Virus record (IMG/VR): IMGVR_UViG_3300019874_000004
Coordinates: 871 to 64,870 of that record
DNA: 64,000 bases
Strand: one strand, 5' to 3'
Source of the DNA: a virus
Taxonomy: Duplodnaviria; Caudoviricetes
Shown here: piece after piece, positions 12,086 through 28,994 of the stretch
Position numbering within the stretch: the first letter of the stretch is position 1
Layout: each line of letters starts with the position of its first letter
Program-made: the position numbers and the translations under genes
The notes under the pieces: generated by a model
Told to the model about the DNA's origin: nothing
Databases searched by the model: none
The model's input: the letters and a program-made list of their open reading frames with translations, nothing else

Positions 12086-12568
12086 GAAAATTTTTTTTTA
12101 TTTTTCCGAAAAAGGGTAGACGCCGGTCCTGGGATGGAGGAGAGTTCTACTCGTAAGGTTCGGTACGGCGGAGCGGGCGGAGCGTTCGCCCCTCCGGTAC
12201 GGAAGGCTAGGCGCGGTCCGTCCGCTCTCGCGGTACGTCTCGACCCGCCTACTCGCCCTAAGGCGCTACCCGTAGGCCGTGTACGAGGCGGCGCGGAAAA
12301 AATCAGACCGAAACAGGACTCCATCAGCTCGCCGCTCACCTATGGTGACCCGCGATGATTCGAGAAAACACGCCCTGTTAGGTTGGAACCCCCTTCGGAG
12401 AGGGGCCATAGAGAGAGCCGAGAGGATACTAACCACCACGCCTGTAATGTCGCTAGTGGTGGAAGTTACGTCCGGAGTGAACTAGCAGCGGGATTAGGCC
12501 ACCGCGAGCTGGAAAGACGCTCAAATCAGTGAGTCGACCGGACAGGGAACTTGAAGGCTAAAGGTCAA

Positions 12569-12640
12569 TAGCAGGGCGGATAACAGCGAAATTGGAATTG
12601 GTGCTTATCCATAAGGGTTCGATCCCCTCCCTGCTAGCAA
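12569..12640 (+). ncRNA. tRNA-like element (acceptor plus T-arm minihelix, no D arm)
   Basis: TAGCAGGG/CCCTGCTA 8-bp stem stacked on AGGG-TTCGATC-CCCT; internal GGATAA/TTATCC hairpin. Confidence 0.45.
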
Positions 12641-12683
12641 GGACTGCGATGGTCGTAGTCCGATTTCAACAAGGAGAACTAAG

Positions 12684-13166
12684 ATGGCTGCTACACGTAC
12701 TTCCCGCAAGCCCCGTTCGGCTGTTCCGGCGGCTCCAGTCGAGCCGATCGCACCGGCGACGGTGAAGACGCCACGGCGTCGCCGTCCGGCTGCTATCCCG
12801 GCTAAGGTGGTCGAGGTGCAGGGCGATGCTCTTACCTCGGTGGCTGCGCCGACCCTGCTCGGAGCGAACGGCGAGCTCATCCGCCACACGCAGGATTACA
12901 CGGTCGACCTGCTCGACCCCGGTGCCGAGCCGGACCGGGATTATAAGAAGGTCCTTGCTAAGGACCCGTCACAGGTGCACGTCGACTTCGTTGCATGGGT
13001 GCAGAAATACGTCGGCTATGACGCCGACGTCAAGACGGTGCAGATCCTGATCTCGACGTACCACGAGTTCCAGAAGACCCCCGAGCAGAAGGCCAAGACG
13101 ATTGCGAAGCGTCTCGGCGCGGCGCAGAAGCGGGCTGAGGCTGCAAAGAAGACAGCCGCTAAGTAG
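12684..13166 (+). CDS. Basic nucleoid-like / DNA-binding protein, paralog of 21884-22363
   Basis: R/K/P/A-rich tails; core PSQVH..F...VGYDADVKTVQ..I..Y..FQKTPEQ shared with the paralog. Confidence 0.7.
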   Translation: MAATRTSRKPRSAVPAAPVEPIAPATVKTPRRRRPAAIPAKVVEVQGDALTSVAAPTLLGANGELIRHTQDYTVDLLDPGAEPDRDYKKVLAKDPSQVHVDFVAWVQKYVGYDADVKTVQILISTYHEFQKTPEQKAKTIAKRLGAAQKRAEAAKKTAAK

Positions 13167-13193
13167 GCTAGGCTCGATCCGGCCGTGATGGTT

Positions 13194-13256
13194 GTGCAGG
13201 GCGATAGAAGGTCCCCCTGCACTTCCACCCCAGTCGGGGACCGAGAGGAGAACAAG
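13194..13256 (+). promoter_or_regulatory. Early leader module copy A: hairpin with TAGAAGG loop, small hairpin, RBS
   Basis: GTGCAGGGCGA-TAGAAGG-TCCCCCTGCAC; CCCC-AGTC-GGGG; GAGGAGAACAAG-ATG. Confidence 0.7.
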
Positions 13257-13499
13257 ATGATGGATAAGGCGACGGTCATGCAGTTCGAGATGGCCGACGG
13301 TACGAAGTACAGGATTACCGACGATGAGGGAATGGAGTTGTTCCTCGATCGTCAGGTACCGGGAAGGAAGTTCGGCGCGCTGTCCAGCGAGTTCTGCTGG
13401 GAGGGGCTGGAAAGTACCGGCGTCGAGAGCGAGGACAACGGCCTGGAAGAGGCCATCATGTTCCTGCTGAAGGTCGCTCTGCGGGACACCAAGGCGTAA
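13257..13499 (+). CDS. Hypothetical early protein (80 aa, acidic)
   Basis: Strong RBS; phage-like codon usage. Confidence 0.75.
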   Translation: MMDKATVMQFEMADGTKYRITDDEGMELFLDRQVPGRKFGALSSEFCWEGLESTGVESEDNGLEEAIMFLLKVALRDTKA

Positions 13500-13514
13500 C
13501 CCGGCCGCGAGTAT

Positions 13515-13575
13515 GGTGCTGAGTTAGAAGGACTCAGCACCGTGCGCCCAGCCGGGCAACCGAAGGGAGAGCAAG
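13515..13575 (+). promoter_or_regulatory. Early leader module copy B
   Basis: GGTGCTGAGT-TAGAAGG-ACTCAGCACC; GCCC-AGCC-GGGC; GGGAGAGCAAG-ATG. Confidence 0.75.
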
Positions 13576-14034
13576 ATGATGAGGTTGGTAGAGACCAATA
13601 GCCTGCGAAAGTGGGCTGCGGGGATGCTGGATGAGGCCAGAGGAAATCTCTGGCAGGAGACCCATAGCCTGGGAGATCAGGTACACCTCGCAAACCCGCT
13701 GGAGTTTGCGGCTGGTGCTGAAGATGACGGGGCGATCGTCAGCACCGACTACACAGAGGTGGAGAATCGGGTATGGGTCAGGATGTACATGGCGAGTCGG
13801 GGCATGCCGGCCGACTATATGTGGGTTGCTGAAGGCCCATCTCGCAATGGTCCGTCCGGACAGTGGTTCGTGGAGCGCCTGGTCGGCGAGTCCATCCCGC
13901 AGCCAGAGCTGCAAGAGCCCTTCGCCAAGGAAGCGCAGCACGCACAGGCGCTCGGTCTCAATGCGCTGATCGCTACAGCCGATATCGACGGCTTCACTGA
14001 GTACGAAGCACGCCAGACGGGCGGCTCGGAGTAG
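13576..14034 (+). CDS. Hypothetical early protein
   Basis: 152-aa ORF with RBS. Confidence 0.7.
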   Translation: MMRLVETNSLRKWAAGMLDEARGNLWQETHSLGDQVHLANPLEFAAGAEDDGAIVSTDYTEVENRVWVRMYMASRGMPADYMWVAEGPSRNGPSGQWFVERLVGESIPQPELQEPFAKEAQHAQALGLNALIATADIDGFTEYEARQTGGSE

Positions 14035-14040
14035 GCACGA

Positions 14041-14105
14041 GGGCGCAGAGTTAGAAGGACTCTGCGCCCGATGCTCATTCCGGAGCAGACGATAGGGAGA
14101 ACAAG
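14041..14105 (+). promoter_or_regulatory. Early leader module copy C
   Basis: GGGCGCAGAGT-TAGAAGG-ACTCTGCGCCC; TGCTC-ATTCCG-GAGCA; GGGAGAACAAG-ATG. Confidence 0.75.
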
Positions 14106-14363
14106 ATGGCAAGAGTTTCTGTTGTTGCGCAGCAGGAGGAGTACGATGAGGTCCTGCAGCTCCTGGAAGCGCTCTCGGCGCTCTCCGAGCAGGGTCGGCC
14201 GGTCCTGAACGGAACCAAGCAGGAGGACTCGGACGGCCGAGTCTGGTACGGCTACGACTACAGCGGCGCGTCTTGGTGGATCACCAAGTCGATGGCTGCG
14301 GAGTCCGACACGACCGCAGAGCCATACGAATTCGCCGAACAGAAAGAGCCGCACACGGCGTAG
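14106..14363 (+). CDS. Hypothetical early protein
   Basis: 85-aa acidic ORF with RBS. Confidence 0.7.
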   Translation: MARVSVVAQQEEYDEVLQLLEALSALSEQGRPVLNGTKQEDSDGRVWYGYDYSGASWWITKSMAAESDTTAEPYEFAEQKEPHTA

Positions 14364-14369
14364 GCAGCA

Positions 14370-14434
14370 GGGCATAGGGAATTAGCAAGCCCTATGCCCA
14401 ATGCTCATTCCGGAGCGCAACTGAGGAGGATGCA
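14370..14434 (+). promoter_or_regulatory. Early leader module copy D
   Basis: GGGCATAGGG-AATTAGCAAG-CCCTATGCCC; GCTC-ATTCCG-GAGC; GAGGAGG RBS. Confidence 0.7.
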
Positions 14435-14587
14435 ATGCCTGCTGCGACTATCAAGGACGTCAAGGAATTCTTCGGCCTGAAGGAAGGCCAGAACCTCAAG
14501 GGCTTCACGGAGGAATGGAAGGTCCTGTCGGAAGAGGCCCGGACGCAGATCAAGGAAGGCATCGGTAACGGCTCGTTCTCTTACTGA
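14435..14587 (+). CDS. Small early protein (50 aa), below the ORF-track cutoff
   Basis: MPAATIKDVKEFFGLKEGQNLKGFTEEWKVLSEEARTQIKEGIGNGSFSY; strong RBS and host-like codons; resembles a small protein I recall from Streptomyces phages (from memory). Confidence 0.75.
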   Translation: MPAATIKDVKEFFGLKEGQNLKGFTEEWKVLSEEARTQIKEGIGNGSFSY

Positions 14588-14596
14588 GATGCAGCG

Positions 14597-14667
14597 CGGT
14601 CCACAGCTACATACGGTTGCTGTGGGCCGTGCCGCACTTCAGATCGGAGTGCAAGGAGGGAGCAATT
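14597..14667 (+). promoter_or_regulatory. Early leader module copy (between 14587 and 14668)
   Basis: CGGTCCACAGC-TACATACGGTT-GCTGTGGGCCG; GCACTTC-AGATC-GGAGTGC; AAGGAGGG RBS. Confidence 0.65.
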
Positions 14668-15219
14668 GTGAAGGGTTTGTTGTGGCTGCGCCGGATGCTC
14701 ACTACAGGGCTTACCGGAGTGGCTTTCTGGAACTCGTACAACCACACGGCCGCTTGGTTCTCGGACCACGGCCAAGCCGAGCAGTCGGGATGGCTCGCGC
14801 TTATCCCGGAAGTCGGCGTGATCCTGGTGGTGCTGACCCTATGCACCGGTAAGCTGGGTCGAGTTGAGTCTGCTATCGTCCGGGCGATCGGAGTCGGGTC
14901 GGTCGCAATCACGTTCACTGCTAACCTCGCAGGGGCATCTGCGGGGCCGATGGGAGTCACGGCCGCTCTGGTAGCGCCTGTGTTCGCGGTGCTAGGCTTC
15001 GCTCTAGAGGCGGTAAGTCTGTCGGCCGAGATCGAGCCGCCCCAGTCTCCTCCGCAGCCCGCCCGCAAGAAGCAGATGGGCAAGACGGACATTGGAATCC
15101 TCTGGGCCACTGAGCGAGACGAGTGGCCGACCACGGCGCAGATCCTGGAGAAGTTCCCAGATATCTCCGTGACGACGGCTCGCAAGATCCACAACTCCAA
15201 GAACTTGGTCAGCGTCTGA
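14668..15219 (+). CDS. Membrane protein, DUF2637/SpdA-like, with a C-terminal HTH-like tail
   Basis: Four TM segments (WNSYNH..WLALIPEVG..ITFTANL..ALVAPV) followed by a PTTAQILEKF..ARK helix-turn-helix-like end. Confidence 0.6.
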   Translation: MKGLLWLRRMLTTGLTGVAFWNSYNHTAAWFSDHGQAEQSGWLALIPEVGVILVVLTLCTGKLGRVESAIVRAIGVGSVAITFTANLAGASAGPMGVTAALVAPVFAVLGFALEAVSLSAEIEPPQSPPQPARKKQMGKTDIGILWATERDEWPTTAQILEKFPDISVTTARKIHNSKNLVSV

Positions 15220-15222
15220 GAG

Positions 15223-15287
15223 GATGGTACAGGGAGAGAAGGCCCTGTACCGTCTGCCCAGACGGGTGCTCAATCAAGGAGGGCAAC
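15223..15287 (+). promoter_or_regulatory. Early leader module copy (between 15219 and 15288)
   Basis: GATGGTACAGGG-AGAGAAGG-CCCTGTACCGTC; GCCC-AGAC-GGGT; AAGGAGGG RBS. Confidence 0.7.
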
Positions 15288-15545
15288 ATGAAAGATGAGA
15301 AGATCCTGGCTGAAGGGGAGCTTGATGCAATCAAGCTGATTCAGGCTGGGATACCTGCAGTAGTCGAGAGCGATCCGATGCAGTTCTACTACGTCCTGGC
15401 AGAGTTGTCAGATATCGAGCAGAAGTGGTTGTGCAGCGTCTGCTACTGGCGCTACTACCACGCCCGACCGATCCTGGCAACTATGTCAGAGACGCAGTTC
15501 TGCAATAACAACGAGGGCGCACACTGTAGGGAGTGTGGGGTATGA
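15288..15545 (+). CDS. Hypothetical protein with CxxC motifs
   Basis: CSVC, FCNN..HCREC; RBS present. Confidence 0.65.
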   Translation: MKDEKILAEGELDAIKLIQAGIPAVVESDPMQFYYVLAELSDIEQKWLCSVCYWRYYHARPILATMSETQFCNNNEGAHCRECGV

Positions 15546-15817
15546 ATCCTGTACATCACCTCTTCAGTGCAAGCGCCCGCATACGGTGCGCGGAGTCTGG
15601 GCATATGTGGAATGATGCATCCTTCTTTCTAGTGCATTGGATGCATAAGCCAGTCCTTGAGCGCGTGCAGAAATGCGAGCGTGTAGGCTGCAATCGTACT
15701 CGTACAGACCGGGTTTCTCCAAGCTCCCTGGAGCGCGTCAGTCGGGTCTACGGGGGTAAGATCGAGAGACTCGGACGGGTGACGCGACAGGATATGCTGA
15801 AGGAGATTATCGGCTGA
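15542..15817 (+). CDS. Hypothetical Zn-binding protein
   Basis: C..SGHMW..CERVGC; ATGA overlap with the upstream gene. Confidence 0.6.
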   Translation: MNPVHHLFSASARIRCAESGHMWNDASFFLVHWMHKPVLERVQKCERVGCNRTRTDRVSPSSLERVSRVYGGKIERLGRVTRQDMLKEIIG

Positions 15818-15921
15818 TGGATTGGGACTGCCCTTGGTGCGGGGAGCACTGCACAAGCGAGCGTGACCTAGAGGGGCACGCCGCAGAATGCGAACCATTT
15901 CTGGAGGAACAAGATGGCTGA
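15817..15921 (+). CDS. Micro Zn-finger protein (34 aa)
   Basis: MDWDCPWCGEHCTSERDLEGHAAECEPFLEEQDG; TGATG coupling and GGAG upstream. Confidence 0.5.
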   Translation: MDWDCPWCGEHCTSERDLEGHAAECEPFLEEQDG

Positions 15922-16249
15922 TGAAACGCCCGGCATCGACATGGGAACGCTGCTGGGATATGCAAGTGGAGGGATAGTGCACTCCCCAAACCCGATCTTC
16001 GCATCCCTGCTGCAGGATCTTCCTGAAGATAACTGCGTCCGGAGGATGTATGGGCTCGGGCATACGGACCACCTGATTACGACCTGGCCCAGGCCGGACG
16101 CTAAGAGCGCTCCTGCGATCGAGCCGGACCGAATCCTGCGACCGCACGAGGCAATGCAGAAAGACTTCCTGAAGAGGCGTCGCAAGAAGGATGCGCCTCC
16201 CGCTCTGAACCTGCCTCCCGCAGGGTCGCACAGGATCAGTGATCTCTGA
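15914..16249 (+). CDS. Hypothetical protein
   Basis: GGAGGAACAAG-ATG start. Confidence 0.6.
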   Translation: MADETPGIDMGTLLGYASGGIVHSPNPIFASLLQDLPEDNCVRRMYGLGHTDHLITTWPRPDAKSAPAIEPDRILRPHEAMQKDFLKRRRKKDAPPALNLPPAGSHRISDL

Positions 16250-16707
16250 TGGCGATCATCTGCGGGAATAGGTCTGCAAGCCATTGCATGGGCTCTCACC
16301 CCTCCGTCGCCGCAGTTAAAGCCTGCTATAGAGGACAGATGGTACAGGGGAGTCTGGACATGGACCCGCCCGTCCTCGCAGCCCTCCCTGAAATGAAAGA
16401 GGGGATGTGGAAGATCGGAGAGCGTGTCTTCAAAGTCCAGATTGCGCACCACGGCTCTGGTCGCCTATACTGCAAGGAACTCCTGGTGGAGGAGGATGTA
16501 CCTGGCGGTGAGCAGTATTCCCACTATTGGGAGATGCGGTCAGGCTTCATGCCGACTCTGCGCAGAGAAGGGGCGCAGATGACTCTGGAAGAGGCCAAGA
16601 AGTTCGGCGCTCTGTACGGATTCTGCTGCAACTGCGGGAAGATCCTCACCAATGAGAAGTCGATCGAACTGGGCATCGGCCCGGTTTGCAGGGGGAGATT
16701 CTCATGA
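16249..16707 (+). CDS. DUF6011-like Zn-binding protein
   Basis: C-terminal CCNCGKILTNEKSIELGIGPVC motif. Confidence 0.75.
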   Translation: MAIICGNRSASHCMGSHPSVAAVKACYRGQMVQGSLDMDPPVLAALPEMKEGMWKIGERVFKVQIAHHGSGRLYCKELLVEEDVPGGEQYSHYWEMRSGFMPTLRREGAQMTLEEAKKFGALYGFCCNCGKILTNEKSIELGIGPVCRGRFS

Positions 16708-16919
16708 GCGTCTTCCACGCAGAGGAAAAGTCTACACACGAAATCATCCGTTGTTATCAGGACCCAGAGGGCATCTGGGTAGATGATGAGAACGATCCAG
16801 GCTACATCGACGACGAGACGTTCGAGAAGTTGTACGAGCGCGTCAACTGAGCTGGGGCCGGGCGCAGGCGACTCACGTAGCTCCCTGTGCCCGGCCCCCA
16901 CCATGTTAGGAGAACAGCA

Positions 16920-17183
16920 GTGAGTGCAATTGAAGAAGCCAAGGCCGGTCTGGAAGCCGCCAAGGAGCACGCAGAGACTGCTTGGCAGGAAGCAAGCCAA
17001 GCCAAGGAGACTGCGGCCGAGACGATCGACATGATTCTGAACGTGACCGGCCCGGATCTTCCAGAGCTCGCATCTATCCCGTTCAACATGATTCAGGAGG
17101 CACAGAACCAGATCGAGCAGGCGCAAGCGCTCCTGTCTTCCGCACAGGAAGCTCTGGAAGAGTACAGCAATTCACTCGGCTAA
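16920..17183 (+). CDS. Helical-hairpin protein (87 aa)
   Basis: Two amphipathic helices joined by NVTGP; AGGAG RBS. Confidence 0.65.
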   Translation: MSAIEEAKAGLEAAKEHAETAWQEASQAKETAAETIDMILNVTGPDLPELASIPFNMIQEAQNQIEQAQALLSSAQEALEEYSNSLG

Positions 17184-17203
17184 ATAACAGCACAGGAGGA
17201 AAA

Positions 17204-17596
17204 ATGATAGTTTACGTATCGATGCCAGATCGTGGAGTCGAGCTGGAATTCCTGGCAGAGATCCTGGATACCTGCGAGTCCGAGATTCAGAGCTGGTGCG
17301 AGATCATCTCGTCCACTCGGACCGAGCAGCCAGAGTATCGGCGGATTGAGATCCTGCACGACGGCAAGGCGATCACCCTCGACCACAGTACGGTGCTGAC
17401 CGGGATTAATCGCCTGCTGAAGGACTACAATCCCAGGGTCCACAAGGGCGGCATGAACCTGGTAGTCCCGACCTTCGGGCAGATCTGTGAGTGGCTGATC
17501 ATGAGCATCAACGACGGCGACACGAGTATGGTGGACGCGGACGTCGCAGACGCCATCATCCAGTACGGCGTCTTGGGAAGTATGGAATACAGCTGA
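17204..17596 (+). CDS. Conserved phage hypothetical protein
   Basis: C-terminal DADVADAIIQYGVLG motif, common in phage proteins (from memory); AGGAGG RBS. Confidence 0.65.
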   Translation: MIVYVSMPDRGVELEFLAEILDTCESEIQSWCEIISSTRTEQPEYRRIEILHDGKAITLDHSTVLTGINRLLKDYNPRVHKGGMNLVVPTFGQICEWLIMSINDGDTSMVDADVADAIIQYGVLGSMEYS

Positions 17597-17701
17597 CAAT
17601 GGGAGACCAACAGAGGGAGGCATTCCGCAAGGCAATGAAGAGAGAGGCAAGGCGCATTCGTGTCCTTGCTATTATCAGGAAGATCTTACATGGAGGGCAC
17701 C

Positions 17702-18787
17702 ATGGTAGATGAAGGCAAGATCCTGGATCAGATCCGGCATATGCTGGCGTTGGCGAACAATCCGGCAGCTAGCGATGCCGAGCGAGAGCTTGCGCTGTCG
17801 ATGGCCAACCGGAAGATGGCCAAGCACGCTATCGACCAGGCGATGCTGGATGCGACCCGAACGTCCACTGAAAAGCGCAAGCCTACCAGCAAGCGCATAC
17901 GGTTGTTCGATGCCGACTTCCAGTGGTCTGGTTACTTCTACGGGGTGATCGGGAAGCTGGGAGAGGTGAACGGCTGCCGGATTGCCTGGCACAGCAGCTA
18001 CAATGAGATCACGCTAGTCGGAATGCAGGAGGACGTCGACTGGGCAGAGATGCTCTGGCTGCAGGTCTTCCTGGACTTCAGCTCCAAGATCAATCCGCGC
18101 TGGGAGCCGGAGCTGCGGCTGGAAGAGAACATCTTCAACTTCAAGCACGCCGGTTACAAGTGGAAAGATATCTGGGAGATCGGCAACCGCAAGCGGGCTG
18201 GCGGGATGCCAGACGGCGGCATCCAGTTCGTCCCCAACAAGTGTGGGTACATGAAGACGATGTACCACAAGCAGTGCAAGCAGCGAGAGGTCAGCCCGGT
18301 CGGCACGCAGACCTTTGAAGCCTACAAGATGACGTTCACCAACTACTTTGTCTTCCGGGTCAATACCCGCCTGGAAGAGATGGCAGAGGTGCGGGCCGAA
18401 GAGGCAGGCGCCACCTCAGGGTCTGAGCTGGCTCTCTTCGACGTCAGTAAGCTGATTGATGAGGAGCTCTGGAACCTCTTCCCAGCTCTGCACCCCGACG
18501 AGCAGGCGCGTCGTGAGGAAGCCGCGAGGAAGCTCGCTAAGGACGCCGAAGAGAGGGACGCTAGCTATCTAGCCTCGCTCTCTCCCGAGGCTCGGAAACG
18601 GGTCCTGACGGCGCGGGCGGACGCCGAACGAGCGAACGCTAAGGCCGACGCGAGGTACTACCGCACCGCCAAGAGGACCTACGACGCAGCTGGAGCGGCT
18701 GCGGGCGATCAGGCCGGAAGTAGCGTCAGCCTGGCACGGTCGGCGCGCTCAGCAGGACAGGCCGAAGCTCGCAAGGAGCTAGCGTGA
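17702..18787 (+). CDS. DUF2786-domain protein
   Basis: N-terminal KILDQIRHMLALANNPAASDAERELALSMANRKMAKHAID. Confidence 0.75.
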   Translation: MVDEGKILDQIRHMLALANNPAASDAERELALSMANRKMAKHAIDQAMLDATRTSTEKRKPTSKRIRLFDADFQWSGYFYGVIGKLGEVNGCRIAWHSSYNEITLVGMQEDVDWAEMLWLQVFLDFSSKINPRWEPELRLEENIFNFKHAGYKWKDIWEIGNRKRAGGMPDGGIQFVPNKCGYMKTMYHKQCKQREVSPVGTQTFEAYKMTFTNYFVFRVNTRLEEMAEVRAEEAGATSGSELALFDVSKLIDEELWNLFPALHPDEQARREEAARKLAKDAEERDASYLASLSPEARKRVLTARADAERANAKADARYYRTAKRTYDAAGAAAGDQAGSSVSLARSARSAGQAEARKELA

Positions 18788-19126
18788 AGTTCCTGGTGAT
18801 CTACAAACCTAGCAATGGCGTCGACTACCGCGAGGTGATCGACTGCGATGCGTTTGCTATGAATCCCAATGGCCGATTCGCATTCCTACAATTCCGTGAT
18901 CTCGCTCCCTACAAGGACTCGAACGGGATTGAATGGACGCCGATCGAAGGCGCGTTGCTATTTGCCATCCCATTCGAAGACGTGCAAAGAATCGAGGGAA
19001 TCTGATGTGGTGGTGGATCGGGGGACTTGGGACCTTAGGATTTTTTGACCTGCTACTCCACGCAGCCCGCGAGCGGTGTCTGCAGGCCGACGACATCCAC
19101 GACTATGAGGATGATGAGCCATACTG

Positions 19127-19630
19127 ATGGACATTCCAGAACTCAACAGCAAAGCAAGGTACGACATACGGTTGCTGAACGTCAACAAGGACGAGACTCT
19201 GACCGATGTAACCTGGACTCAGGGCGTCGACTACCGGCGGCTGCTTGATGCGGTCCTGGAGCTGATTGTGATGAAGGAGAGAAATGCGGAAGCGTTCGCA
19301 GGCGACATCATTATCAGCGCGGCTGGGTCACGCGATCCAATGCCTAGATATCGAAGACTGCAAGAGAGTAGCTCTGACAGTAGCAGTCCTGTCCTCCGCA
19401 GTGTACCAAGCATTGGAGAAGATGCAACCGAGCAGCGTCCCGGTCACGATCACTACTGGGGCCAAAAGCAGACCATCGAGGCAGAGAGGCTCAGGAGGAC
19501 GCAGGCCGAACTAGAGAATGTGAACTGGCAGTGCGATAACTGCTCGCACATCGCCGGTCGCCACAGTAATGTAGCTCCGTTCAGATGTATAGTTGACGGG
19601 TGCGATTGTTTCACCTGGTCAGGAGAATAG
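19127..19630 (+). CDS. Hypothetical protein with C-terminal Zn finger
   Basis: CDNCSH..H..C..CDC. Confidence 0.55.
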   Translation: MDIPELNSKARYDIRLLNVNKDETLTDVTWTQGVDYRRLLDAVLELIVMKERNAEAFAGDIIISAAGSRDPMPRYRRLQESSSDSSSPVLRSVPSIGEDATEQRPGHDHYWGQKQTIEAERLRRTQAELENVNWQCDNCSHIAGRHSNVAPFRCIVDGCDCFTWSGE

Positions 19631-21577
19631 ATGGACGCCCATGTAGAGTTAGACCCAGAGCTAAACCGGATCTTCCTGCGGGTTGAATACTACGTGGGGG
19701 TCTCGCAAGACTGTAAGGCTATCCCTGGATACAAGTGGCACCCTGATATAGAGGGAAAGCCCTGGAGCTACCCGGCAAGAATGCAAACTTGCCATGCACT
19801 GCGGAAGGTGTTCGGAAAGAAAATGACCATCGGCCCATTCCTTACAGAGTGGGCCAGGAAGAATGCGCGAGCCTATGCTAGGCAGAGATCCCTCGCAAGC
19901 AAACCGGACTCAGACCTGGCGAAAGTCAAAGCGATGTTCCCTGCGTTCTGGGATGCGATGTCAAGTCGACCATACCAACGGTCTGGCGCGGAGTTCTTGG
20001 CGACCACTGGCCACACCGCAGACTTCTCAGAGCCGGGGCTAGGCAAGACGGCGACTAGTCTCGCAGCGCTCATTCAGGCAGGGGTATTCGCAGGAGGGAG
20101 GCACCTGGTTATCGTCTCTAACAAGACCGCTATACGGTCGACCTGGAGACACGAGATTGAGAAGTGGACTCCAGGGGCGCACGTCTACCCGATGCCAGAC
20201 GGCTGGCAGAAGCGGGAGCAGGAGCTAGACAAATTCTGGGCCGACAATAGCAGCGCTGCGAAGTTCGTAGTCTGCCTTCCGCACATGCTCCAGATTAAGC
20301 AAGAGCGCTGGTGCAAGAAGTGCAAGCAGTGGGCGAACGATCCCAAGCAACTATCTGCAGAGCACTACGGGGAGTCCCACAAGGTCACGACTGAGGACTA
20401 CAGGATTGACTGGCAAGAGCTGTTCTCGATCGAGTGGGACTCCATCATCGCAGATGAGGCGCACGACTACCTCCTCAAGCTCCGCCCGGGACAATCTAAG
20501 AACCAGCCCCAATGGGCAATAGGCATGCGTCGGCTCCAGGTTAAGCAGGGCGGCGTGAAGCTGCCTATGACCGGGACGCCGATGCGCGGAAAGGAGCAGA
20601 ATCTATTCGGCATCCTGTACTGGATCGATCCCATACGGTTCTCTTCATTCTGGGCCTGGGCCGGGGCATACTTCGATGTTGTCAATAATGAATACAACCA
20701 GACAGTCGGGAAGCTGCGGCCGGAAATGGAGGAGGCATTCTATGATGTGATCGACTCCCTCTGCCTCCGCAGAACCCTGCGCGAGGTACGCAAGGACCTT
20801 CCACCGCAGCTCCCACAGGAGCACTGGGTTCCATTAGACGGCGAGCACAGGAGGCAGTATGAGGAATTTGAGGCAGAGGGGGTCGTGGCCCTGGAGTCCG
20901 GCGTGCTGGAAGGGCTAGGAACCTTGTCGGAGTTGACAAGGCTCCGACAATTAGCATTCGGCCCCTGGGACGTAGAGATAGATCAGGACGACGACAAGCA
21001 GACCATCAAGATGGTTGAACAGGTCGAGAAGTCTCCCAAGGTTCAGCTCATGATGGATATGCTGCGGGAGCGCGGCATCCCGGGTGACGTATTCACACAG
21101 CAGCGTGACGCAAAGGACGCTCGCAAGTTCATCATTGCCTCCCAGTACACGCAGATCATCGGCGGGCTGGAGCGGATGTTCAGCAACATGGGAATCGCGA
21201 CGCTTTCAATTACCGGCAAAGTTACCGGTAGCAAACGCTCCGCCGCAGTCACCTCATTCCAGAAGCCGGGTGGACCGCGAATTCTTCTCATCAATACCAA
21301 AGCAGGAGGAGCCTCGCTCACCCTCGATGCTTATTGTGATGAGATGTTCATCCTGGATGAGACCTGGATTCACGATGACCAGGTCCAGCTAATGGGTCGC
21401 ATCAATAATCGGGGGCAGCGAATCGCAACCCGGATTTACCACTTCTTCAGGACAGAGGAGACGATCGATGAAGGAATAGCAATGGGCAATGATGATCAGA
21501 ATCAGATGCAGTCTATGATCCTCGACAGTCGTCGTGGAAATCAGGTAGCCTTGAGACTACTGAAGCGGAGAGAGTAA
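19631..21577 (+). CDS. SNF2/SF2-family helicase
   Basis: EPGLGKT Walker A, IADEAH, MTGTP, QLMGRINNR; CKKC Zn insertion. Confidence 0.92.
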   Translation: MDAHVELDPELNRIFLRVEYYVGVSQDCKAIPGYKWHPDIEGKPWSYPARMQTCHALRKVFGKKMTIGPFLTEWARKNARAYARQRSLASKPDSDLAKVKAMFPAFWDAMSSRPYQRSGAEFLATTGHTADFSEPGLGKTATSLAALIQAGVFAGGRHLVIVSNKTAIRSTWRHEIEKWTPGAHVYPMPDGWQKREQELDKFWADNSSAAKFVVCLPHMLQIKQERWCKKCKQWANDPKQLSAEHYGESHKVTTEDYRIDWQELFSIEWDSIIADEAHDYLLKLRPGQSKNQPQWAIGMRRLQVKQGGVKLPMTGTPMRGKEQNLFGILYWIDPIRFSSFWAWAGAYFDVVNNEYNQTVGKLRPEMEEAFYDVIDSLCLRRTLREVRKDLPPQLPQEHWVPLDGEHRRQYEEFEAEGVVALESGVLEGLGTLSELTRLRQLAFGPWDVEIDQDDDKQTIKMVEQVEKSPKVQLMMDMLRERGIPGDVFTQQRDAKDARKFIIASQYTQIIGGLERMFSNMGIATLSITGKVTGSKRSAAVTSFQKPGGPRILLINTKAGGASLTLDAYCDEMFILDETWIHDDQVQLMGRINNRGQRIATRIYHFFRTEETIDEGIAMGNDDQNQMQSMILDSRRGNQVALRLLKRRE

Positions 21578-21838
21578 ATGATCGGTCTAATCTGGGTCAT
21601 GTGTGTTGTGACTGCATATACCGTTGCTACAGTTTCAGCAGGGTATCTATGGGGCCGTGCGCACCAGATCAATCATGACAGGCACGTGCAAGACATGATG
21701 AATGATGCTGCGGACAACGCCCGGATGGCGCAGCGGCATCGCATACGGACGGCCGAGGCTGACCTGAATTCCAACGCCCAGGTACGTACGGCTAGACTGC
21801 GGGCCTACAGATACAAGACCCCTCCGCCACGTAAGTAA
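21578..21838 (+). CDS. Single-TM hypothetical protein
   Basis: Hydrophobic N-terminus. Confidence 0.5.
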   Translation: MIGLIWVMCVVTAYTVATVSAGYLWGRAHQINHDRHVQDMMNDAADNARMAQRHRIRTAEADLNSNAQVRTARLRAYRYKTPPPRK

Positions 21839-21883
21839 ATCCGCTAGGGTAGAGCTAGTCAACCGACACAAGGAGAAACCGAA

Positions 21884-22363
21884 ATGGCACGTGCAACCAA
21901 GGCCGTCGCAAAGCCTGTCGAGCCTGAAGAGGACGACTACGAACTTGGCCACTACATGGACAAGGAGCCGTCCAAAGTCCACGAGAACTTTGCGGAGTAC
22001 GTCGGCGAGATGGTCGGCTATGATGCCGACATCAAGACCATCCAGCTCGTGATCGCCCTGTACCAGAAGTTCCAGAAGACGCCGGAACAGCAGGCATTCA
22101 ACAAGGCCAAGAAGGAAGCCAGCGCCGAAGCTGCGGAAGCTCGCGAGGCCAAGCGCGCCAAGGCTGAGAAGGCCGAAGTCTCTACCCCCAAGGCCCGGAC
22201 CTCCAGTCGTACCAAGGCTGCTTCGGCGGCCGAAGAGGTTGAGGAAGAGGAAGCTCCTGCACGCCCTGCTCGTGGACGCCGTGGTGCTGCTCCTGCCGCC
22301 CCTGTGAAGCGGGCCACGTCGCGCCGTCGTCCGGTTCCTGCCGTAGACGACATCGACGAGTAG
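21884..22363 (+). CDS. Basic nucleoid-like protein, paralog of 12684-13166
   Basis: KEPSKVHENF..VGYDADIKTIQLVIALYQKFQKTPEQ core; A/K/R/E-rich tail. Confidence 0.75.
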   Translation: MARATKAVAKPVEPEEDDYELGHYMDKEPSKVHENFAEYVGEMVGYDADIKTIQLVIALYQKFQKTPEQQAFNKAKKEASAEAAEAREAKRAKAEKAEVSTPKARTSSRTKAASAAEEVEEEEAPARPARGRRGAAPAAPVKRATSRRRPVPAVDDIDE

Positions 22364-22677
22364 CGTGCAGGTCGGTGTTCCTGTGGTCCTTCTAGCTGCA
22401 GGAACTCACGGTGGGTCCGTTAAGCCCACCCCACATACGGCCCCCAATCTCTCGGGTTGGGGGCTGCGGTGTCGGTAGTGGCCTCCCAGACCACTATACC
22501 ACTGACGCGATAAGGTGGGAGACTGAGAAGGCTCTGATCCTTGCGCACCTGACCAGCCATGGCCCATGAGCAGATCCTTGCACAAGAGATACCTCGCATA
22601 GTCCGCCAAGGAGACGGGGAAAAGGTGGTGCAATTCCACCCGGGGCCACGAACACCATCTACATACGGAGGGCAACC
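22364..22677 (+). ncRNA. Candidate structured non-coding RNA
   Basis: At least five hairpins (several with G-U pairs), a possible pseudoknot and a GGTGG-TGCAATT-CCACC T-arm-like element; no convincing ORF with RBS. Confidence 0.5.
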
Positions 22678-22960
22678 GTGGGAATGACATTGCGACAACT
22701 GATAGACAGCCTCATTGATCTGGAGGAGGCAGCCAAGACAATAGGCGACCCGCCGGTCAGGGTTGCATCTCTCGGATATGCAGAATGGCGAGAGGAAGAC
22801 CGTCTTGTTGATCTGGAAACTGTGAGCCTGCGGTTTAACAATGGAGACATAATCTTGGGAGTTGATAAGTGATGATGTGGATTGAAGGAATCGCTCTCGC
22901 ACTATGCATCCCTGGGATCTTCTTCATCCTTGGGCTCTGGGCTAACGGCTGGTTTGACGA

Positions 22961-24055
22961 ATGATCGAACTCAGGACATCCGAGAGGGCGACGTTTAAGC
23001 GCTGCCCGCAGAGATGGGAGTGGGGAGTCAAAGAGGGACTGCGACCGCACCGGGAGGCTACACCGCTCTGGTTCGGGACCGCAGTCCACATTGCGTTAAG
23101 CGAGTGGTACCTGCCCGGGTTAGCTCGCGGCCCACATCCAGCGCTGACGTTCTTGAAGGTGCTAGAGGGCGACCGGTCAATTCGCATTCCCTCGGATAAT
23201 GAGGAATGGGAAGCCGAGTACATGAAGGCCAAAGACCTTGGGCAGGAGATGCTCACGAACTATGTCGACCACTGGGGGAAGGATAACAACAAGTACTATA
23301 TCTGCACAGAGCGGACTGGCTCTATCTTCCTACCAGAGATCGGTAAGACCAAGGGTAGGCACACAAAGTATTTCTTCACCTTCGACGGCGTGTATCGGGA
23401 CGAGACCACGGGCGAGTATTGGCTAGACGAGCACAAGACAGCAGCCAGCATTGACCCGGGCTCTCTGCCTCTTAACCAGCAGGCTAGCTCCTACTGGGCC
23501 GTCGCAGAGGGCATCCTGAAGCGAACTGGTATGATGCCTAAGGACAAGCACATCCAGGGCATCATGTTTAACTTTCTACGAAAGGCCCCCAAGGATCGGC
23601 GACCCAAGAACGAAGATGGACTAGCCACTAACAAGCCGACTAAGGCTCACTTCCACGCAGCCTTTGAAGCAGCCGGGCTCCCCACGCAGCTATATCTGCG
23701 GGCGAAGATGGTCCGGCTATATGAAATTGCGCACGTTGAGCACATCAAGGTTCTGGGCGAGCCATCTAGTGTGCAGACCTCAGAGTTGTTCGAGCGACAC
23801 CCGGTCTTCCGGACGCCAGGGGAGCGCCGACAGCAACTGATTCAGGTCCGCAAGGACGCCTGGCATATCGAGCACGCCAGGAATGATCCGAACTATCCCA
23901 TTGTTAAGAATCCCACCAAGGATTGCAAGTGGGACTGCGACTTCTACAGGATGTGTCAGCTTCATGAACAGGGAGATATGGAGTCTGTGGAGGAGTTTAA
24001 ATCAGCAATGTATACAATCAGAGATCCCTATGAAGCATACAGGAAGAGTGCATAA
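22961..24055 (+). CDS. PD-(D/E)XK RecB/Cas4-like exonuclease
   Basis: LRTSERATFKRCPQRW; FGTAVH; FDGVYRD..WLDEHKT; C-terminal CKWDCDFYRMC. Confidence 0.88.
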   Translation: MIELRTSERATFKRCPQRWEWGVKEGLRPHREATPLWFGTAVHIALSEWYLPGLARGPHPALTFLKVLEGDRSIRIPSDNEEWEAEYMKAKDLGQEMLTNYVDHWGKDNNKYYICTERTGSIFLPEIGKTKGRHTKYFFTFDGVYRDETTGEYWLDEHKTAASIDPGSLPLNQQASSYWAVAEGILKRTGMMPKDKHIQGIMFNFLRKAPKDRRPKNEDGLATNKPTKAHFHAAFEAAGLPTQLYLRAKMVRLYEIAHVEHIKVLGEPSSVQTSELFERHPVFRTPGERRQQLIQVRKDAWHIEHARNDPNYPIVKNPTKDCKWDCDFYRMCQLHEQGDMESVEEFKSAMYTIRDPYEAYRKSA

Positions 24056-24220
24056 TGAGTTCTGTCCACGATCGGAACCGGGAGGGGTTAGAGTCGACCC
24101 TTAAGCGAGTAGCGAGGATGTACGCTACTGGAGAAATCGGCAAGGACAAGTTTGATCGGTTCGCTAAGACAATTGAGTCCGCATTCAAGCAGATTGATAC
24201 GATGGAAGAGGAGACTACAA

Positions 24221-25012
24221 ATGTCGAAGCCTGAGTACATCCAGCCCTTGGCACGCAACGCTAAGGTTAGGATGGCCTTGGTCACTGGTTCGGGATTCGG
24301 CAAGACTGTATTTGGAGGGACTGCGCCGAAGGCCCTCTTCCTTACCACCGACCCAGAGGGCACGATCTCCGCAGCCGAGTTCGGCTCCACCGCAGAAGAG
24401 TGGAAGATCGAGTCCTGGCAGGATGATGGCGGCCTATCTGATGCATACGAGTACATGCTGAAGGAAGGATGCAAGGAATACCAGTGGCTGATTCACGACA
24501 ACGCCACTGAGGAACAGAACCTGGGAATGTCTATGGCCATGCAGCAGGCACTGTCAAAGCCGACCGGCGCTGGCCGCAGTCCTTTCGTTCCAGACAAGCG
24601 AGAGTATCAGATCTCGCAGAACTCTTTCATCCAGATGCAGAAGCAATTCATCACCCTCCCTATTCACCAGATCTGGACAGTACACCGGAAATGGTTTGAC
24701 CCGGAGAATGGTGACGATGGCTTCTGGTCCGCAAACATCCAGGGACAGCAAGGCGCGGTTGCTGAGCAGTTCCTGGGGTACATGAATATCATCGGCCATG
24801 GAGAGGTGACAGAGAACAAACTGAAGAAGACAGTTCGCCGGTTGTACTTTGACCACTACAAGAGCTACCGGGGCAAGGATCGGTTCAATGCATTGGGCCG
24901 GTTCAAGGATGACTTCACAGTCCCGAAGATGATGCGATTGATCAAGGCGCATCAAGAGGGTGCACCCGTCAAGAAGACAGCAGTGCGACGTCGCGTCGCA
25001 CGTACCGCCTAA
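24221..25012 (+). CDS. AAA ATPase (AAA_24/Sak4-like annealing protein)
   Basis: TGSGFGKT Walker A; LIHDNATE; HQIWTVH; KDRF; follows the exonuclease. Confidence 0.8.
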   Translation: MSKPEYIQPLARNAKVRMALVTGSGFGKTVFGGTAPKALFLTTDPEGTISAAEFGSTAEEWKIESWQDDGGLSDAYEYMLKEGCKEYQWLIHDNATEEQNLGMSMAMQQALSKPTGAGRSPFVPDKREYQISQNSFIQMQKQFITLPIHQIWTVHRKWFDPENGDDGFWSANIQGQQGAVAEQFLGYMNIIGHGEVTENKLKKTVRRLYFDHYKSYRGKDRFNALGRFKDDFTVPKMMRLIKAHQEGAPVKKTAVRRRVARTA

Positions 25013-25026
25013 GAGAGGGCACTGAA

Positions 25027-25956
25027 ATGCCAAGTGTTATCAAGCGTAAGACTTCGCACGTAGCTGAGTCCGCATTCAAGATCTACGCAGGGGATGAGCC
25101 GCGCCCGGGTGGCTACCGGGGCATCCTCAAGCAGCTGAACATGGTCAAGTCCAAGGGCGACAACCTGATGTTTACTGCGGTCGTGGAGTTCGAGGCCAAG
25201 GACGGCTCGGACAAGAAGCAGTTCGATGGCTATGCCACCTTCCCGCAGATCCCGCTGACCGACAACGAGAGCAACATTCAGCGCGAGCAGGCGTTGTACG
25301 TTGCAGTCTGCGGCAAGATGGACGCCGACATCAAGGTCGATGGGACTCCAGAGAAGTTCAAGGCTGGTGACGGCCAGAAGGCCAAGGTCGTTTCGATCAA
25401 CGGCGTGAAGCCAGAGGGCAAGGTCGTCAACGTTCGGATGCGTTACGAGATCGACAACCGCGAGGGCATGAACGGCGCCCAGCAGTTGCGTTGCGATCTC
25501 ATCTTCGCAGCCCGGGGCGAGTCTCCGGTTGTTGACGAAGAGGACGACATCGAGGACGACGAGGAAACAGACGAGGAGGGTCTGCCGCTGTACGAGGAAG
25601 ATGACCTCAAGACCAAGAACCTGGTCGCCCTGCGGAAGATCCTGGTCGACGAATTGGATCAGGACGCCGCAGAGATCAAGGCCGAGAAGTCCAAGGCCGC
25701 TCTGATCGAACTCATCCTCGAGCTGCAGGAAGATGAAGAGGAGGACGAAGATGAAGAAGACGAAGAAGAGACAGATGAGGAAGAGGACGAAGACAAAGAA
25801 GCCGAAATCCGTGAAGAAGTCGACGGGATGGATCGCAACGTACTGAAGGCTGCTATCAAGAAGCGCGATTCTGCTTTCAGGGTCCTGAAGTCCACTACCG
25901 ATGAAGCCCTGCGTGAGGCGCTGGTTGCACTCATGCTCCAAGACCCGCCATTCTGA
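25027..25956 (+). CDS. SSB-like protein with acidic tract and HeH/Rho-N-like repeats
   Basis: N-terminal beta-rich domain, long D/E tract, two short helical motifs (LVALRKIL..KAALIELIL; MDRNVLKAAIK..DEALREAL); position in the recombination module. Confidence 0.6.
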   Translation: MPSVIKRKTSHVAESAFKIYAGDEPRPGGYRGILKQLNMVKSKGDNLMFTAVVEFEAKDGSDKKQFDGYATFPQIPLTDNESNIQREQALYVAVCGKMDADIKVDGTPEKFKAGDGQKAKVVSINGVKPEGKVVNVRMRYEIDNREGMNGAQQLRCDLIFAARGESPVVDEEDDIEDDEETDEEGLPLYEEDDLKTKNLVALRKILVDELDQDAAEIKAEKSKAALIELILELQEDEEEDEDEEDEEETDEEEDEDKEAEIREEVDGMDRNVLKAAIKKRDSAFRVLKSTTDEALREALVALMLQDPPF

Positions 25957-26084
25957 GTCTCTGAGGCTGCGGCTACTACAGCACTGATAGTGGGATGTCC
26001 GTAGCTAGGAGCTTGCAGGTGGCTAGGCGGTGACAGGCCCATGGCTAAGAAGTGCAGAGTCTTCTAGATCCAGAGGCAGTCTCG

Positions 26085-26107
26085 GGTGCGGTCCGTTAAG
26101 CCGCACC
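26085..26107 (+). promoter_or_regulatory. Hairpin with TCCGTTAAG loop (second copy; first at 22410-22430)
   Basis: GGTGCGG-TCCGTTAAG-CCGCACC versus GGTGGG-TCCGTTAAG-CCCACC. Confidence 0.6.
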
Positions 26108-26135
26108 ACTTAACAACAAAATTAAGGAGGGCCTT

Positions 26136-28994
26136 GTGGTCGTTAGCTTGAAGCCAGATACAATACGGTCTGGCTTTCGCGATTGGTTCGTGGGGGAAGA
26201 GAACGCAGAGGGAGAGCAGCGGGCATATTGCCCGGTGTGTGAAGATCCCGATGTGTCCTCTTCCCCTTCTGCTATGATGAACCCAGATGGAGATATCTGG
26301 AATTGTCTGAAGGGGAATCACGGCGGGTCGATTACATCCCTATCCAAGCAACTTAAGACGGAGCGCGGCTGGGATATCAGGGGCGCTGCAAATGCAGCGA
26401 CCCGCCGCACAGCTCCCGTACACTCCCCCAAGCAAACCAATAAGTCAAAAGGTCCCGCCCCATCTCCCACCGCAGTCATTGAATGGAACCAGGCCCTCTT
26501 GGAAAACAAGGGGGTCATTTCCAGCTTTATGAGCAGGCGCGGGATTGATGAAGAATCCATTATCGAGAACGAGATCGGCTGGGACGAGAAGACCCGGCGC
26601 TTTACAATCCCTGTGTACGACAAGGACGGGGAGCTAGTCAACATTCGCAAGTACAAGATGGGCGCTGGCGACAACGAGCAGAAGTTCATCAACCACCAGG
26701 GCTGGGGCAATGCGCGTCTGTTTATGCCTTGGGTCTTGGAAGACGCAGAGGGCATTATCCTGGCAGAGGGAGAGCTAGACTGTCTCTTGCTCAACCAGAT
26801 GGGGTTTCCTGCGGTGAGCGGGACGGGTGGCAGCGGAACCTGGCTGACTGCATGGTCCAAGGAGTTCACTGGTAAGACAGTCTACGTCGCATATGACCAG
26901 GACGACGCAGGGGAAAAAGGCGCATTGCTAGTGAGCAACGCGCTGCGTAACTTTGCCACCGCAGTCTACCGGGTGAAGCTCCCTACGCCTGGGTCTGACG
27001 TGACTGATTTCTTCATGAAGGAAGACTTCACTGAGGAGGACTTCGAAAAGGTCCTAGAGGCTGCCAGCGCGGCCGGCAACCGGGTCTCTACCGCGATAGA
27101 AGATATGCCAACGATCGGGACTAGGGCGAGTCTCCTTGAGTCGATGAGCGAGGGCTCTACGGGCGAGCCTCTAGAGCTAATCGTCTCTGTGACAGGCAAG
27201 ATGCAGGAGCCCTGGACCGCTCCCCGCAGAGTGGTCGGGACTTGCGACATGAGCAAGGGTGTGGCATGTGAGACTTGCCCACTCCAGAGTCGCAACGGCT
27301 CAATGGAGATCCTGACACAGGCGCACGACACCCGGCTGATTAGCTTTGTGGATATCTCCGCCACCACGCAGCACAAACTGTTGCGATCTTTGATGGGGGC
27401 TCGCTGCTCAGACCGGATTCAATTTGACATTGAAGAGATCTGGAACATTGAAGAGCTGACGGTTCAGAACAGCATTGACGAGAGAACCGACGATGTGATT
27501 GCAACTCCGACGCATCGGACGGTTTGGTCTATCGGGACCTACCGCACGCAGACCAATGAGAAGATCAGGCTCCTGGGTCAGAACGTACAGGACCCAAAAT
27601 CGGGCGGCTTGAAGTTCACCTCCTGGATCAATCAGAAGGTCGAGCTGGATATCGACAAGTTCAAGCTAGACAGTGAAAGCCGTGACCGGCTGACACAATT
27701 CCAGCCGGAAGAGGGGCAGTCTTATCTAGACAAGTGCCTAGATATCGCAAAGGATATGTCTGCGAACGTGACAGGAATCATCGGCAGAGAGTTACTCCAT
27801 GTTGGGATGGATCTAGTATGGCATTCTCCAATAGCATTCAGAGTTCGCGACAAGGACGTCGACAAGGGCTGGCTGGAGATGATGGTAGTTGGGGATACTC
27901 GTACGGGCAAAAGCGAGATAGCGACCAGTCTGATGAAGCACTATCTGAGTGGCAGACTAGTAAGCTGCGAAGGTGTGACGTTTGCGGGACTGATTGGTGG
28001 CGTCCAGCAGATCAACGGCAGATGGAACATGACCTGGGGAGCCGTCCCGATGAACGACAGACGGTTAGTTGTGCTGGACGAGGTCAGCGGAATGGCAGAG
28101 AACAACATCATCGAGCAGATGAGCCAGGTACGGTCTTCCGGCATAGCCCAGGTAACTAAGATCGCATCTGAGAGCACAAGCGCACGGGTTCGGCTGATCT
28201 GGATCTCTAACCCGGTCGGCGGCAAGTTCCTCTCCGAGAATAGATTGGGTGGTATTGGTGCTCTTATTACCGTGGTTCCCAACATGGAAGATATCGCCAG
28301 ATTTGACTTTGTCATGGCGTCAGCAAAGGGCGATGTCGGCAGTGCAGATATTAATGCTGACCATCGACAAGGCACCCCATCTTACAGTAGTGACGACTGC
28401 GAGCTGCTGGTCAAGTGGTCCTGGTCCCTGGGTAGAGATAACGTCAAAATTGGGGATCGCGCGGTTACAGCTGCCTCCCAACATGCGATTAAGATGGGTG
28501 AGCGATACACAAGTAGTCCTCCACTTGTGCAGGCCGAGAATGTTCGGTTCAAGATTCTGCGAATCGCCGCAGCAATGGCAGCTCGAACTTTCTCGATCGG
28601 CAAAACCGGTCCAGTTACCTTACAGGTTTCCAAGGCCCATGTAGAGGACGCCGTCAGATTCCTAGATGCGATTTACGGGGAGGACTCCCTAGGGTACGGT
28701 CGGATGAGCCGGGCCGAGATCGAGCGAACCAGTAACAGCGAGACGAACCTCAGCCTCACCCGGCAGCTACTCAAGCAACACCCAGGAGTATTTGAGACCT
28801 TGTTCATGAATATCGGAGGTGAGTTCAGAGTCCGGGACTTTGAGGAGTTCCAGGGCATCGAGAAGACAACTGCAAGTAATATCAGCGCAAGCCTACACAA
28901 GTGGGGCCTGACGAAGTATGCGGGCCGTGGAGTGTTCTCAATGACAGAGCAGCTAGTGAAGCTGCTAGATGAACTCAAGGAGGAGGGCATATGA
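26136..28994 (+). CDS. Primase-helicase fusion (Zn finger + TOPRIM + MCM-like AAA+)
   Basis: CPVC..WNCLKGNH; LAEGELD and AYDQDDAG TOPRIM motifs; GDTRTGKS; GLIGG..VVLDE; RFD arginine finger. Confidence 0.88.
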   Translation: MVVSLKPDTIRSGFRDWFVGEENAEGEQRAYCPVCEDPDVSSSPSAMMNPDGDIWNCLKGNHGGSITSLSKQLKTERGWDIRGAANAATRRTAPVHSPKQTNKSKGPAPSPTAVIEWNQALLENKGVISSFMSRRGIDEESIIENEIGWDEKTRRFTIPVYDKDGELVNIRKYKMGAGDNEQKFINHQGWGNARLFMPWVLEDAEGIILAEGELDCLLLNQMGFPAVSGTGGSGTWLTAWSKEFTGKTVYVAYDQDDAGEKGALLVSNALRNFATAVYRVKLPTPGSDVTDFFMKEDFTEEDFEKVLEAASAAGNRVSTAIEDMPTIGTRASLLESMSEGSTGEPLELIVSVTGKMQEPWTAPRRVVGTCDMSKGVACETCPLQSRNGSMEILTQAHDTRLISFVDISATTQHKLLRSLMGARCSDRIQFDIEEIWNIEELTVQNSIDERTDDVIATPTHRTVWSIGTYRTQTNEKIRLLGQNVQDPKSGGLKFTSWINQKVELDIDKFKLDSESRDRLTQFQPEEGQSYLDKCLDIAKDMSANVTGIIGRELLHVGMDLVWHSPIAFRVRDKDVDKGWLEMMVVGDTRTGKSEIATSLMKHYLSGRLVSCEGVTFAGLIGGVQQINGRWNMTWGAVPMNDRRLVVLDEVSGMAENNIIEQMSQVRSSGIAQVTKIASESTSARVRLIWISNPVGGKFLSENRLGGIGALITVVPNMEDIARFDFVMASAKGDVGSADINADHRQGTPSYSSDDCELLVKWSWSLGRDNVKIGDRAVTAASQHAIKMGERYTSSPPLVQAENVRFKILRIAAAMAARTFSIGKTGPVTLQVSKAHVEDAVRFLDAIYGEDSLGYGRMSRAEIERTSNSETNLSLTRQLLKQHPGVFETLFMNIGGEFRVRDFEEFQGIEKTTASNISASLHKWGLTKYAGRGVFSMTEQLVKLLDELKEEGI

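Follow-up and report, generated by a model that had tools for sequence, protein, structure and literature searches.

A candidate loop-loop RNA contact between distant hairpins of a soil siphovirus and its metagenomic relatives

Can the loop of a hairpin that follows one phage gene pair with the loops of several hairpins lying thousands of nucleotides upstream on the same strand? The question is raised by a short non-coding element at 22377-22405 of a 64,000-nt stretch of DNA (hereafter the window), which takes in almost the whole of a 64,870-bp virus record. The only sequencing runs found to contain this DNA are a pair of DNA runs on a single soil metagenome sample; no RNA run was among them. 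It encodes a siphovirus gene set (tape measure protein, terminase, portal and major head protein) and a replication block comprising genes for an SNF2-type helicase, a PD-(D/E)XK exonuclease, an AAA_24 annealing protein, a primase-helicase and a DNA polymerase, and all of its plausible genes are carried on the plus strand. The closest cultured phages are Arthrobacter phage Wollypog and phages of Microbacterium, Gordonia and Mycobacterium, at a protein identity of only ~50%. The DNA polymerase gene of the window (34351-37485) matches HNH endonuclease families in its middle (residues about 610-745); in Wollypog, the homologous DnaE-like gene is interrupted by a separate HNH gene.

The element, which we call the late hairpin, comes after one of two paralogous genes; the first of four early hairpins comes after the other. 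The features are, in window coordinates:

12684-13166, plus strand: gene for a 160-aa protein of a family of unknown function, paralogue of the 159-aa gene; early hairpin 1 comes after it
13194-13222, plus strand: early hairpin 1, loop UAGAAGG at 13205-13211, 27 nt past the stop codon of the 160-aa gene, with the ATG at 13257 lying 34 nt on
13513-13543, plus strand: early hairpin 2, loop UAGAAGG at 13525-13531, -24.4 kcal/mol (z = -8.2), with the ATG at 13576 lying 32 nt on
14041-14069, plus strand: early hairpin 3, loop UAGAAGG at 14052-14058, with the ATG at 14106 lying 36 nt on
15220-15257, plus strand: early hairpin 4, an 8-nt loop at 15235-15242 with a 6-nt match to the late loop, and the ATG at 15288 ~30 nt on
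21884-22363, plus strand: gene for a 159-aa protein of a family of unknown function, paralogue of the 160-aa gene; the late hairpin comes after it
22377-22405, plus strand: late hairpin; its stem has 11 bp, three of them G-U, and its loop at 22388-22394 is the pyrimidine 7-mer CCUUCUA

Folding reproduced the stem and loop of the late hairpin as the initial annotation had described them. The structure begins 13 nt past the stop codon of the 159-aa gene. As plus-strand RNA it is predicted to fold at -15.2 kcal/mol (z = -3.98), and none of 200 shuffled sequences did as well. The minus strand reached just -10.1 kcal/mol with a different, broken stem, because the three G-U pairs turn into A-C mismatches there; the accompanying claim that the hairpin folds well only as plus-strand RNA was thus upheld. 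The late hairpin opens a non-coding gap of roughly 310 nt, which is followed by a small gene at 22678 and then by the exonuclease gene. When the whole 317-nt gap is folded, the 5' arm of the late hairpin prefers pairing with 22643-22658, and this alternative helix is only half conserved in L112, one of the related contigs introduced below. Our scan called neither a promoter-like nor a terminator-like site close to 22377-22405.

The gap contains other elements. A degenerate tRNA may lie at 22560-22650, where a T-arm-like hairpin and an acceptor-like end can be made out. ARAGORN called no tRNA in the window and called one at the same place in L112 (636-707), and the corresponding gaps of L280 and L278 hold tRNA-like sequences too. 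A second hairpin family is marked by an invariant 9-nt loop (TCCGTTAAG) on co-varying stems. Its sites are 22411-22431 and 26086-26108 in the window, about 358-378 in L112, about 13075-13100 in L113 and about 5298-5320 in L284. The usual place of this hairpin is upstream of the primase-helicase gene, and the window and L112 have an extra copy directly after the late hairpin. An exact 11-mer of the family occurs twice in the window, where near matches number 5 against 0.75 expected. The stretches 22385-22431 and 26057-26108 are paralogous modules of ~50 nt, each consisting of a pyrimidine CTAG stretch and then the invariant-loop hairpin. The sequence at 26060, which had been noted as related to the late hairpin, belongs to the second module copy, and its predicted pairing partner is an upstream purine stretch. 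The sequence is indeed present, but no hairpin loop contains it and a relative has not kept it; as part of a duplicated module with these properties, it was rejected as a member of the system.

The three early hairpins with exact partner loops have stems of -17 to -24 kcal/mol and z-scores of -4.2 to -8.2. All four early hairpins are intercistronic, starting 3-27 nt past the preceding stop codon and ending about 30-36 nt before the next start codon, so that they leave the ribosome binding sites uncovered. In the predicted structures, closure of a U-G pair shrinks the early loops to 5 nt. The same loops are weak Shine-Dalgarno mimics, at -4 to -5.7 kcal/mol compared with -10.1 for the canonical sequence. 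Neither the late hairpin nor any of the four early hairpins is followed by a run of U residues, and none of them was listed in the terminator scan; they do not qualify as intrinsic terminators, in which such a run comes after a G+C-rich stem. The 160-aa and 159-aa proteins fall into families to which no function is assigned (PHROG 34140 and 20596), and both have arginine-rich tails. This pair of paralogues, each with a hairpin 3' of its gene, is retained even in relatives at ~40% exonuclease identity. Other strong intercistronic hairpins carry the motif CATACGG in their loops (14590-14636 in the window, and also in L116, L278, L280 and L283), and the motif recurs in the conserved ribosome binding site (RBS) context (22662-22675) of the small gene that precedes the exonuclease. 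Across 12000-27000, matches to sigma-70-like promoters numbered 0 on both strands as against 5.2 expected from shuffles, and the early and replication genes in this region may depend on few promoters or on another promoter type.

How exceptional is the match between the loops? The late loop is the exact 7-nt complement of three early loops, with the 7-mer lying within the loop at 13205, 13525 and 14052 as the initial annotation had it, and it matches the fourth early loop at six of seven positions. A distance of 7-9 kb separates the complementary sites, which share a strand; their stems are unrelated, and inspection by eye found no possible extension of the loop duplex into the stems. When the 23 strong intergenic plus-strand hairpins of the window were compared with one another (253 loop pairs), at least 6 complementary bases were found in the four early/late pairs only, every other pair having at most 5. 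A background survey of 174 related loci (719 hairpins, 2157 within-locus pairs) yielded just 13 pairs that reached 6 nt and 2 that reached 7 nt, and five of the 13 belong to the same early/late family (L113, L116, L117 and L280). The sole other 7-nt pair in the survey joins intergenic hairpins at 239 and 6854 of L231, a distant relative; it may be chance or a second example.

The bare 7-mer shows no enrichment in the window (6 found, 6.2 expected), and all six exact copies lie in non-coding DNA, which makes up ~9% of the window. Two of the copies sit, one per strand, in the inner arms of a large nested inverted repeat (40785-40994) between nucleotide-metabolism genes and the next gene block. 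A 234-nt fold of this repeat has a predicted energy of -102.6 kcal/mol (z = -6), and a terminator-like site was called at 40808-40820.

Megablast against cultured phages found no close relative of the window, and none turned up in single-protein scans of IMG/VR. Exact-pattern scans of IMG/VR with an early-loop 14-mer and a 16-mer of the conserved RBS context returned unrelated chance matches only, and profile scans of IMG/VR and metagenomes returned mostly relatives at 30-57% identity that do not have the loop-loop system. Related metagenome contigs were reached via exonuclease homologues, and an early-region contig (L286) via a homologue of the 160-aa protein.

Eight relatives (L112, L113, L116, L117, L278/L279, L280, L283 and L284) have a late hairpin at the same place, 3' of the 159-aa homologue. 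Their stems are wholly different between lineages yet paired. The late loop of these relatives is always pyrimidine, of the CUUCCCU type with small variants, such as an extra U in the L112 lineage and an initial A in those of L278 and L284, where the window has CCUUCUA. Plus-strand RNA is the more stable form in eight of nine late hairpins, and G-U pairs number 13 on the plus strand versus 3 on the minus strand. These two observations indicate that the late-hairpin structure is selected as RNA of the plus (coding) strand. For the early hairpins, the plus-strand fold is equal to or better than that of the minus strand. The arrangement does not extend to all relatives: more distant ones have hairpins after both paralogues with loops that lack complementarity, and Wollypog, the nearest cultured relative, has neither a gap nor a hairpin after its 159-aa homologue. 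L283 retains the late loop, yet the hairpin that follows its 160-aa homologue closes on an unrelated loop of 4 nt, and the 10 kb upstream yielded no intergenic early partner. Hairpins with GGGAAG loops inside the DUF6011 gene of relatives were considered and dropped, as the nearest hairpin of the window lies at a different residue position; the presence of the motif in that gene is due to a conserved Phe-Gly-Lys codon run.

If the loops do pair, a change in one should be matched in the other. In L113, L116, L117 and L286, the hairpin after the 160-aa homologue carries a GGGAAG-type loop, and loops of this type are also found on the counterparts of early hairpin 3 in L113 (2515-2543, with conserved flanks), L280 and L286. 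Early hairpin 3 and its L280 counterpart (161-191) amount to a natural loop swap, in which the same 10-bp stem bears in each phage the loop of its own class. We compared all early with all late loops by the longest complementary match. Within the window, the four early loops match the late loop over 7, 7, 7 and 6 nt, and the early loops of relatives match the late loops of relatives over 5-7 nt. Across the two groups, the values are 3-5 nt for window early loops with relatives' late loops and 3-4 nt for relatives' early loops with the window late loop. By sequence, the loops form two predicted specificity classes, UAGAAGG/CCUUCUA in the window and GGGAAG/CUUCCCU type in the relatives.

Alignment on the shared GAAG/CUUC core shows two flanking positions compensated on both sides, plus one extra pair. 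The co-variation represents one evolutionary switch, between the window lineage and the rest, with about two compensatory positions and one added pair. Co-variation of the two loop types in related phages had been named beforehand as a check on the proposed contact, and it was found, as a matched letter change across that single switch. Loop change without compensation, the opposite outcome, may have occurred in the L284 lineage. The L284 late loop begins with A instead of C, and its pairing with L286 (from the same assembly and putatively the same phage) is limited to 6 bp because L286 has no compensating change; L283, as described above, is without a partner. The matched loop classes, together with the finding that both hairpin types fold best on the plus strand, support direct contact between the loops. 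The initial annotation, which had a later-expressed RNA dock on several early leaders as an early-to-middle switch, is thereby supported in part: the results back the contact, and a separate later-made RNA and a switch role are hypotheses beyond it.

Overall, the best-supported reading, which draws on structure, complementarity, conservation, strand and one matched switch, is that the late and early hairpins are plus-strand RNA structures whose loops may be joined by a kissing contact of 6-7 bp. We give this reading about an even chance of being correct. Weighing against it are the dependence of the co-variation on a single switch, the partnerless late loop of L283, the uncompensated base in the L284 lineage, the mismatched loops of more distant relatives, the missing gap in Wollypog, the competing fold of the whole gap, the closure of the early loops to 5 nt, and the similar predicted energies of late loops on RBS hexamers.

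Three other explanations were weighed against it. A phage protein might read the 7-mer as a single motif in duplex DNA (or in an extruded single strand) in either orientation, in which case the late site would be an inverted copy and motif and protein would co-evolve. An identical 9-mer does surround the loop at 13525 and 14052 on the plus strand and at 22386 on the minus strand, the two exact 7-mers that remain beyond the hairpins form arms of the 40785-40994 repeat, the exact copies are without exception non-coding, and a class switch between phages would fit protein-DNA co-evolution as well. A duplex-binding protein would, however, have no need of co-varying stems or of the placement of five of seven sites exactly in loops. 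A protein that reads loops fares no better, since the late hairpin folds poorly on the minus strand in eight of nine genomes and the protein would not meet the same structure there. Because all genes are on the plus strand, the inverted site also has no matching direction of transcription, and no DNA-binding protein adjoining the sites was identified. We regard a DNA motif as unlikely, although it survives best of the three.

Alternatively, the two loop types could each be constrained separately and be complementary by chance; the early loops might, for example, be boxB-like sites for an arginine-rich phage protein, with the hairpins serving as 3' stabilisers or terminators. That hairpins follow both paralogues in distant relatives, with loops that do not match, is what such independence would produce, and the purine-rich early loops (as in lambda boxB), the arginine-rich tails of both paralogues and the unenriched 7-mer count agree with it. 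The background rate of a 7-nt match, ~1 in 2150 pairs, speaks against coincidence, as does the existence of the match in two letter versions at homologous hairpins; a role in termination is further opposed by the missing U-tracts and by the scan, which called none of the hairpins a terminator. Separate constraint is, in our judgement, improbable, and more so than the DNA motif.

The remaining explanation treats the late pyrimidine loop as an anti-RBS element directed at purine-rich Shine-Dalgarno regions, such as that of the small gene at 22678, the early match being a by-product of purine/pyrimidine bias. The predicted pairing energy of late loops on RBS hexamers typical of these phages, -5 to -8.4 kcal/mol, is near the values for the loop-loop pairings (-7.5 and -9.5); the RBS context ahead of the small gene is conserved across relatives; a second L112 hairpin has a loop complementary to the small-gene RBS; and L283 keeps its late loop without an early partner. 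We consider it the least probable of the three, since it leaves unexplained the two-sided change of flanking loop positions in the window, the constant loop placement of the early purine motif and the fall to 3-5 nt across classes, and since the RBS is identical between both classes.

A kissing contact between the late and early loops could form either between transcripts or inside one long transcript, and the late hairpin might act as part of such a transcript, as a processed 3' end or as an RNA of its own. Because its site is ~9 kb further along the same strand, the late hairpin would presumably be made after its partners. Once made, it could dock on loops 32-36 nt ahead of four early start codons, and docking could alter the translation, the processing or cleavage, or the stability and decay of the four early messages. 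The outcome would be a delayed feedback on early genes. In some relatives, a tRNA gene stands just downstream of the late hairpin and would offer a processing point.

A broader proposal, which we put forward tentatively and with less confidence than the contact itself, is that this clade of soil actinophage-like siphoviruses may use loop-loop contacts between RNAs as an addressable network. The replication region would supply a single pyrimidine-loop hairpin, able to dock on purine-loop hairpins before several early genes. The resulting feedback would need no protein, and the time taken to transcribe the intervening 9 kb would set its delay. The address would evolve by matched loop swaps, giving classes comparable to immunity groups. 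To our knowledge, early-gene shut-down in lytic phages that lack their own RNA polymerase is poorly understood beyond a few models, and it is essentially unstudied in actinophages. If the proposal is true, phages would have a new form of antisense control, in which a loop in one messenger region contacts several targets in others and natural compensatory variants exist. The two natural loop classes serve as built-in swap controls and so make a ready-made test available, and the loop pairs could also be used as orthogonal RNA docking modules. Should the contact not be real, the hairpins would still be a well-defined set of structured elements, conserved in a phage clade for which metagenomes are the sole source.

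How does this arrangement relate to systems already described? Among phage DNA signals, the stoperators of Cluster A mycobacteriophages are duplex DNA repressor sites that lie outside hairpin loops and in one orientation relative to transcription. The early and late sites resemble them in being a short asymmetric motif that recurs in short gaps between genes and varies from one related phage to another; they depart from them in that the late copy is inverted although the genes are all on the plus strand, and in that five copies sit in hairpin loops. A lambda-type nut site combines a purine-loop boxB hairpin, a boxA-like element and an N-like arginine-rich protein. Here purine-rich loops are present, just two window hairpins have a TGCTCA-type box after them, and the arginine-rich tails have no family match.

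Among RNA systems, the pRNA of the phi29 family makes an intermolecular loop-loop contact whose letters vary between related phages while complementarity is kept. That contact joins identical RNAs into a ring of the packaging motor, in contrast to the different hairpins in messenger regions considered here. In ColE1 RNA I/RNA II and R1 CopA/CopT, contact begins at complementary loops of ~7 nt on stable stems. Complementary loops on both stem-loops are likewise found in the window, as in ColE1. The plasmid pairs, however, are opposite strands of one locus and complementary throughout, whereas the phage hairpins are on the same strand and complementary in their loops only.

The c4 RNA of phages P1 and P7 and the CI RNA of P4 share strand and transcription unit with their targets and act through short complementary elements. 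Citron and Schuster reportedly described the P1/P7 c4 antisense RNA, from the immI operon, in 1992 (reference given in PMC8546580). The late hairpin is similar to c4 and CI in being a same-strand phage element whose letters change from phage to related phage in step with those of its target, here as two classes. The differences are that c4 and CI lie upstream of or near their targets, are cut by RNase P, and block an RBS or terminate transcription, and the late hairpin stands 9 kb downstream. No Rfam family, c4 included, reached threshold in the window, and only chance-level matches were obtained in 22300-22750. Judged on these features (no Rfam match, no cis-antisense arrangement, no RBS overlap and several targets), the late/early hairpin system is not a member of the OxyS, c4/CI or ColE1-type families.

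For the small RNA OxyS and the fhlA mRNA of Escherichia coli, PMC2946933, citing Argaman and Altuvia 2000, has the loops of stem-loops kissing at two sites. The resemblance lies in loops on RNA hairpins from different loci that pair over short stretches. A promoter of its own makes OxyS a discrete small RNA, whereas the late hairpin is a predicted structure on the coding strand, near which no promoter-like site was called. One OxyS contact covers the RBS, whereas here there are four targets, with early hairpins that end 32-36 nt before the start codons and neither cover nor abut the RBS. Of the known systems, the arrangement described here would work most like the OxyS-fhlA kissing contact.
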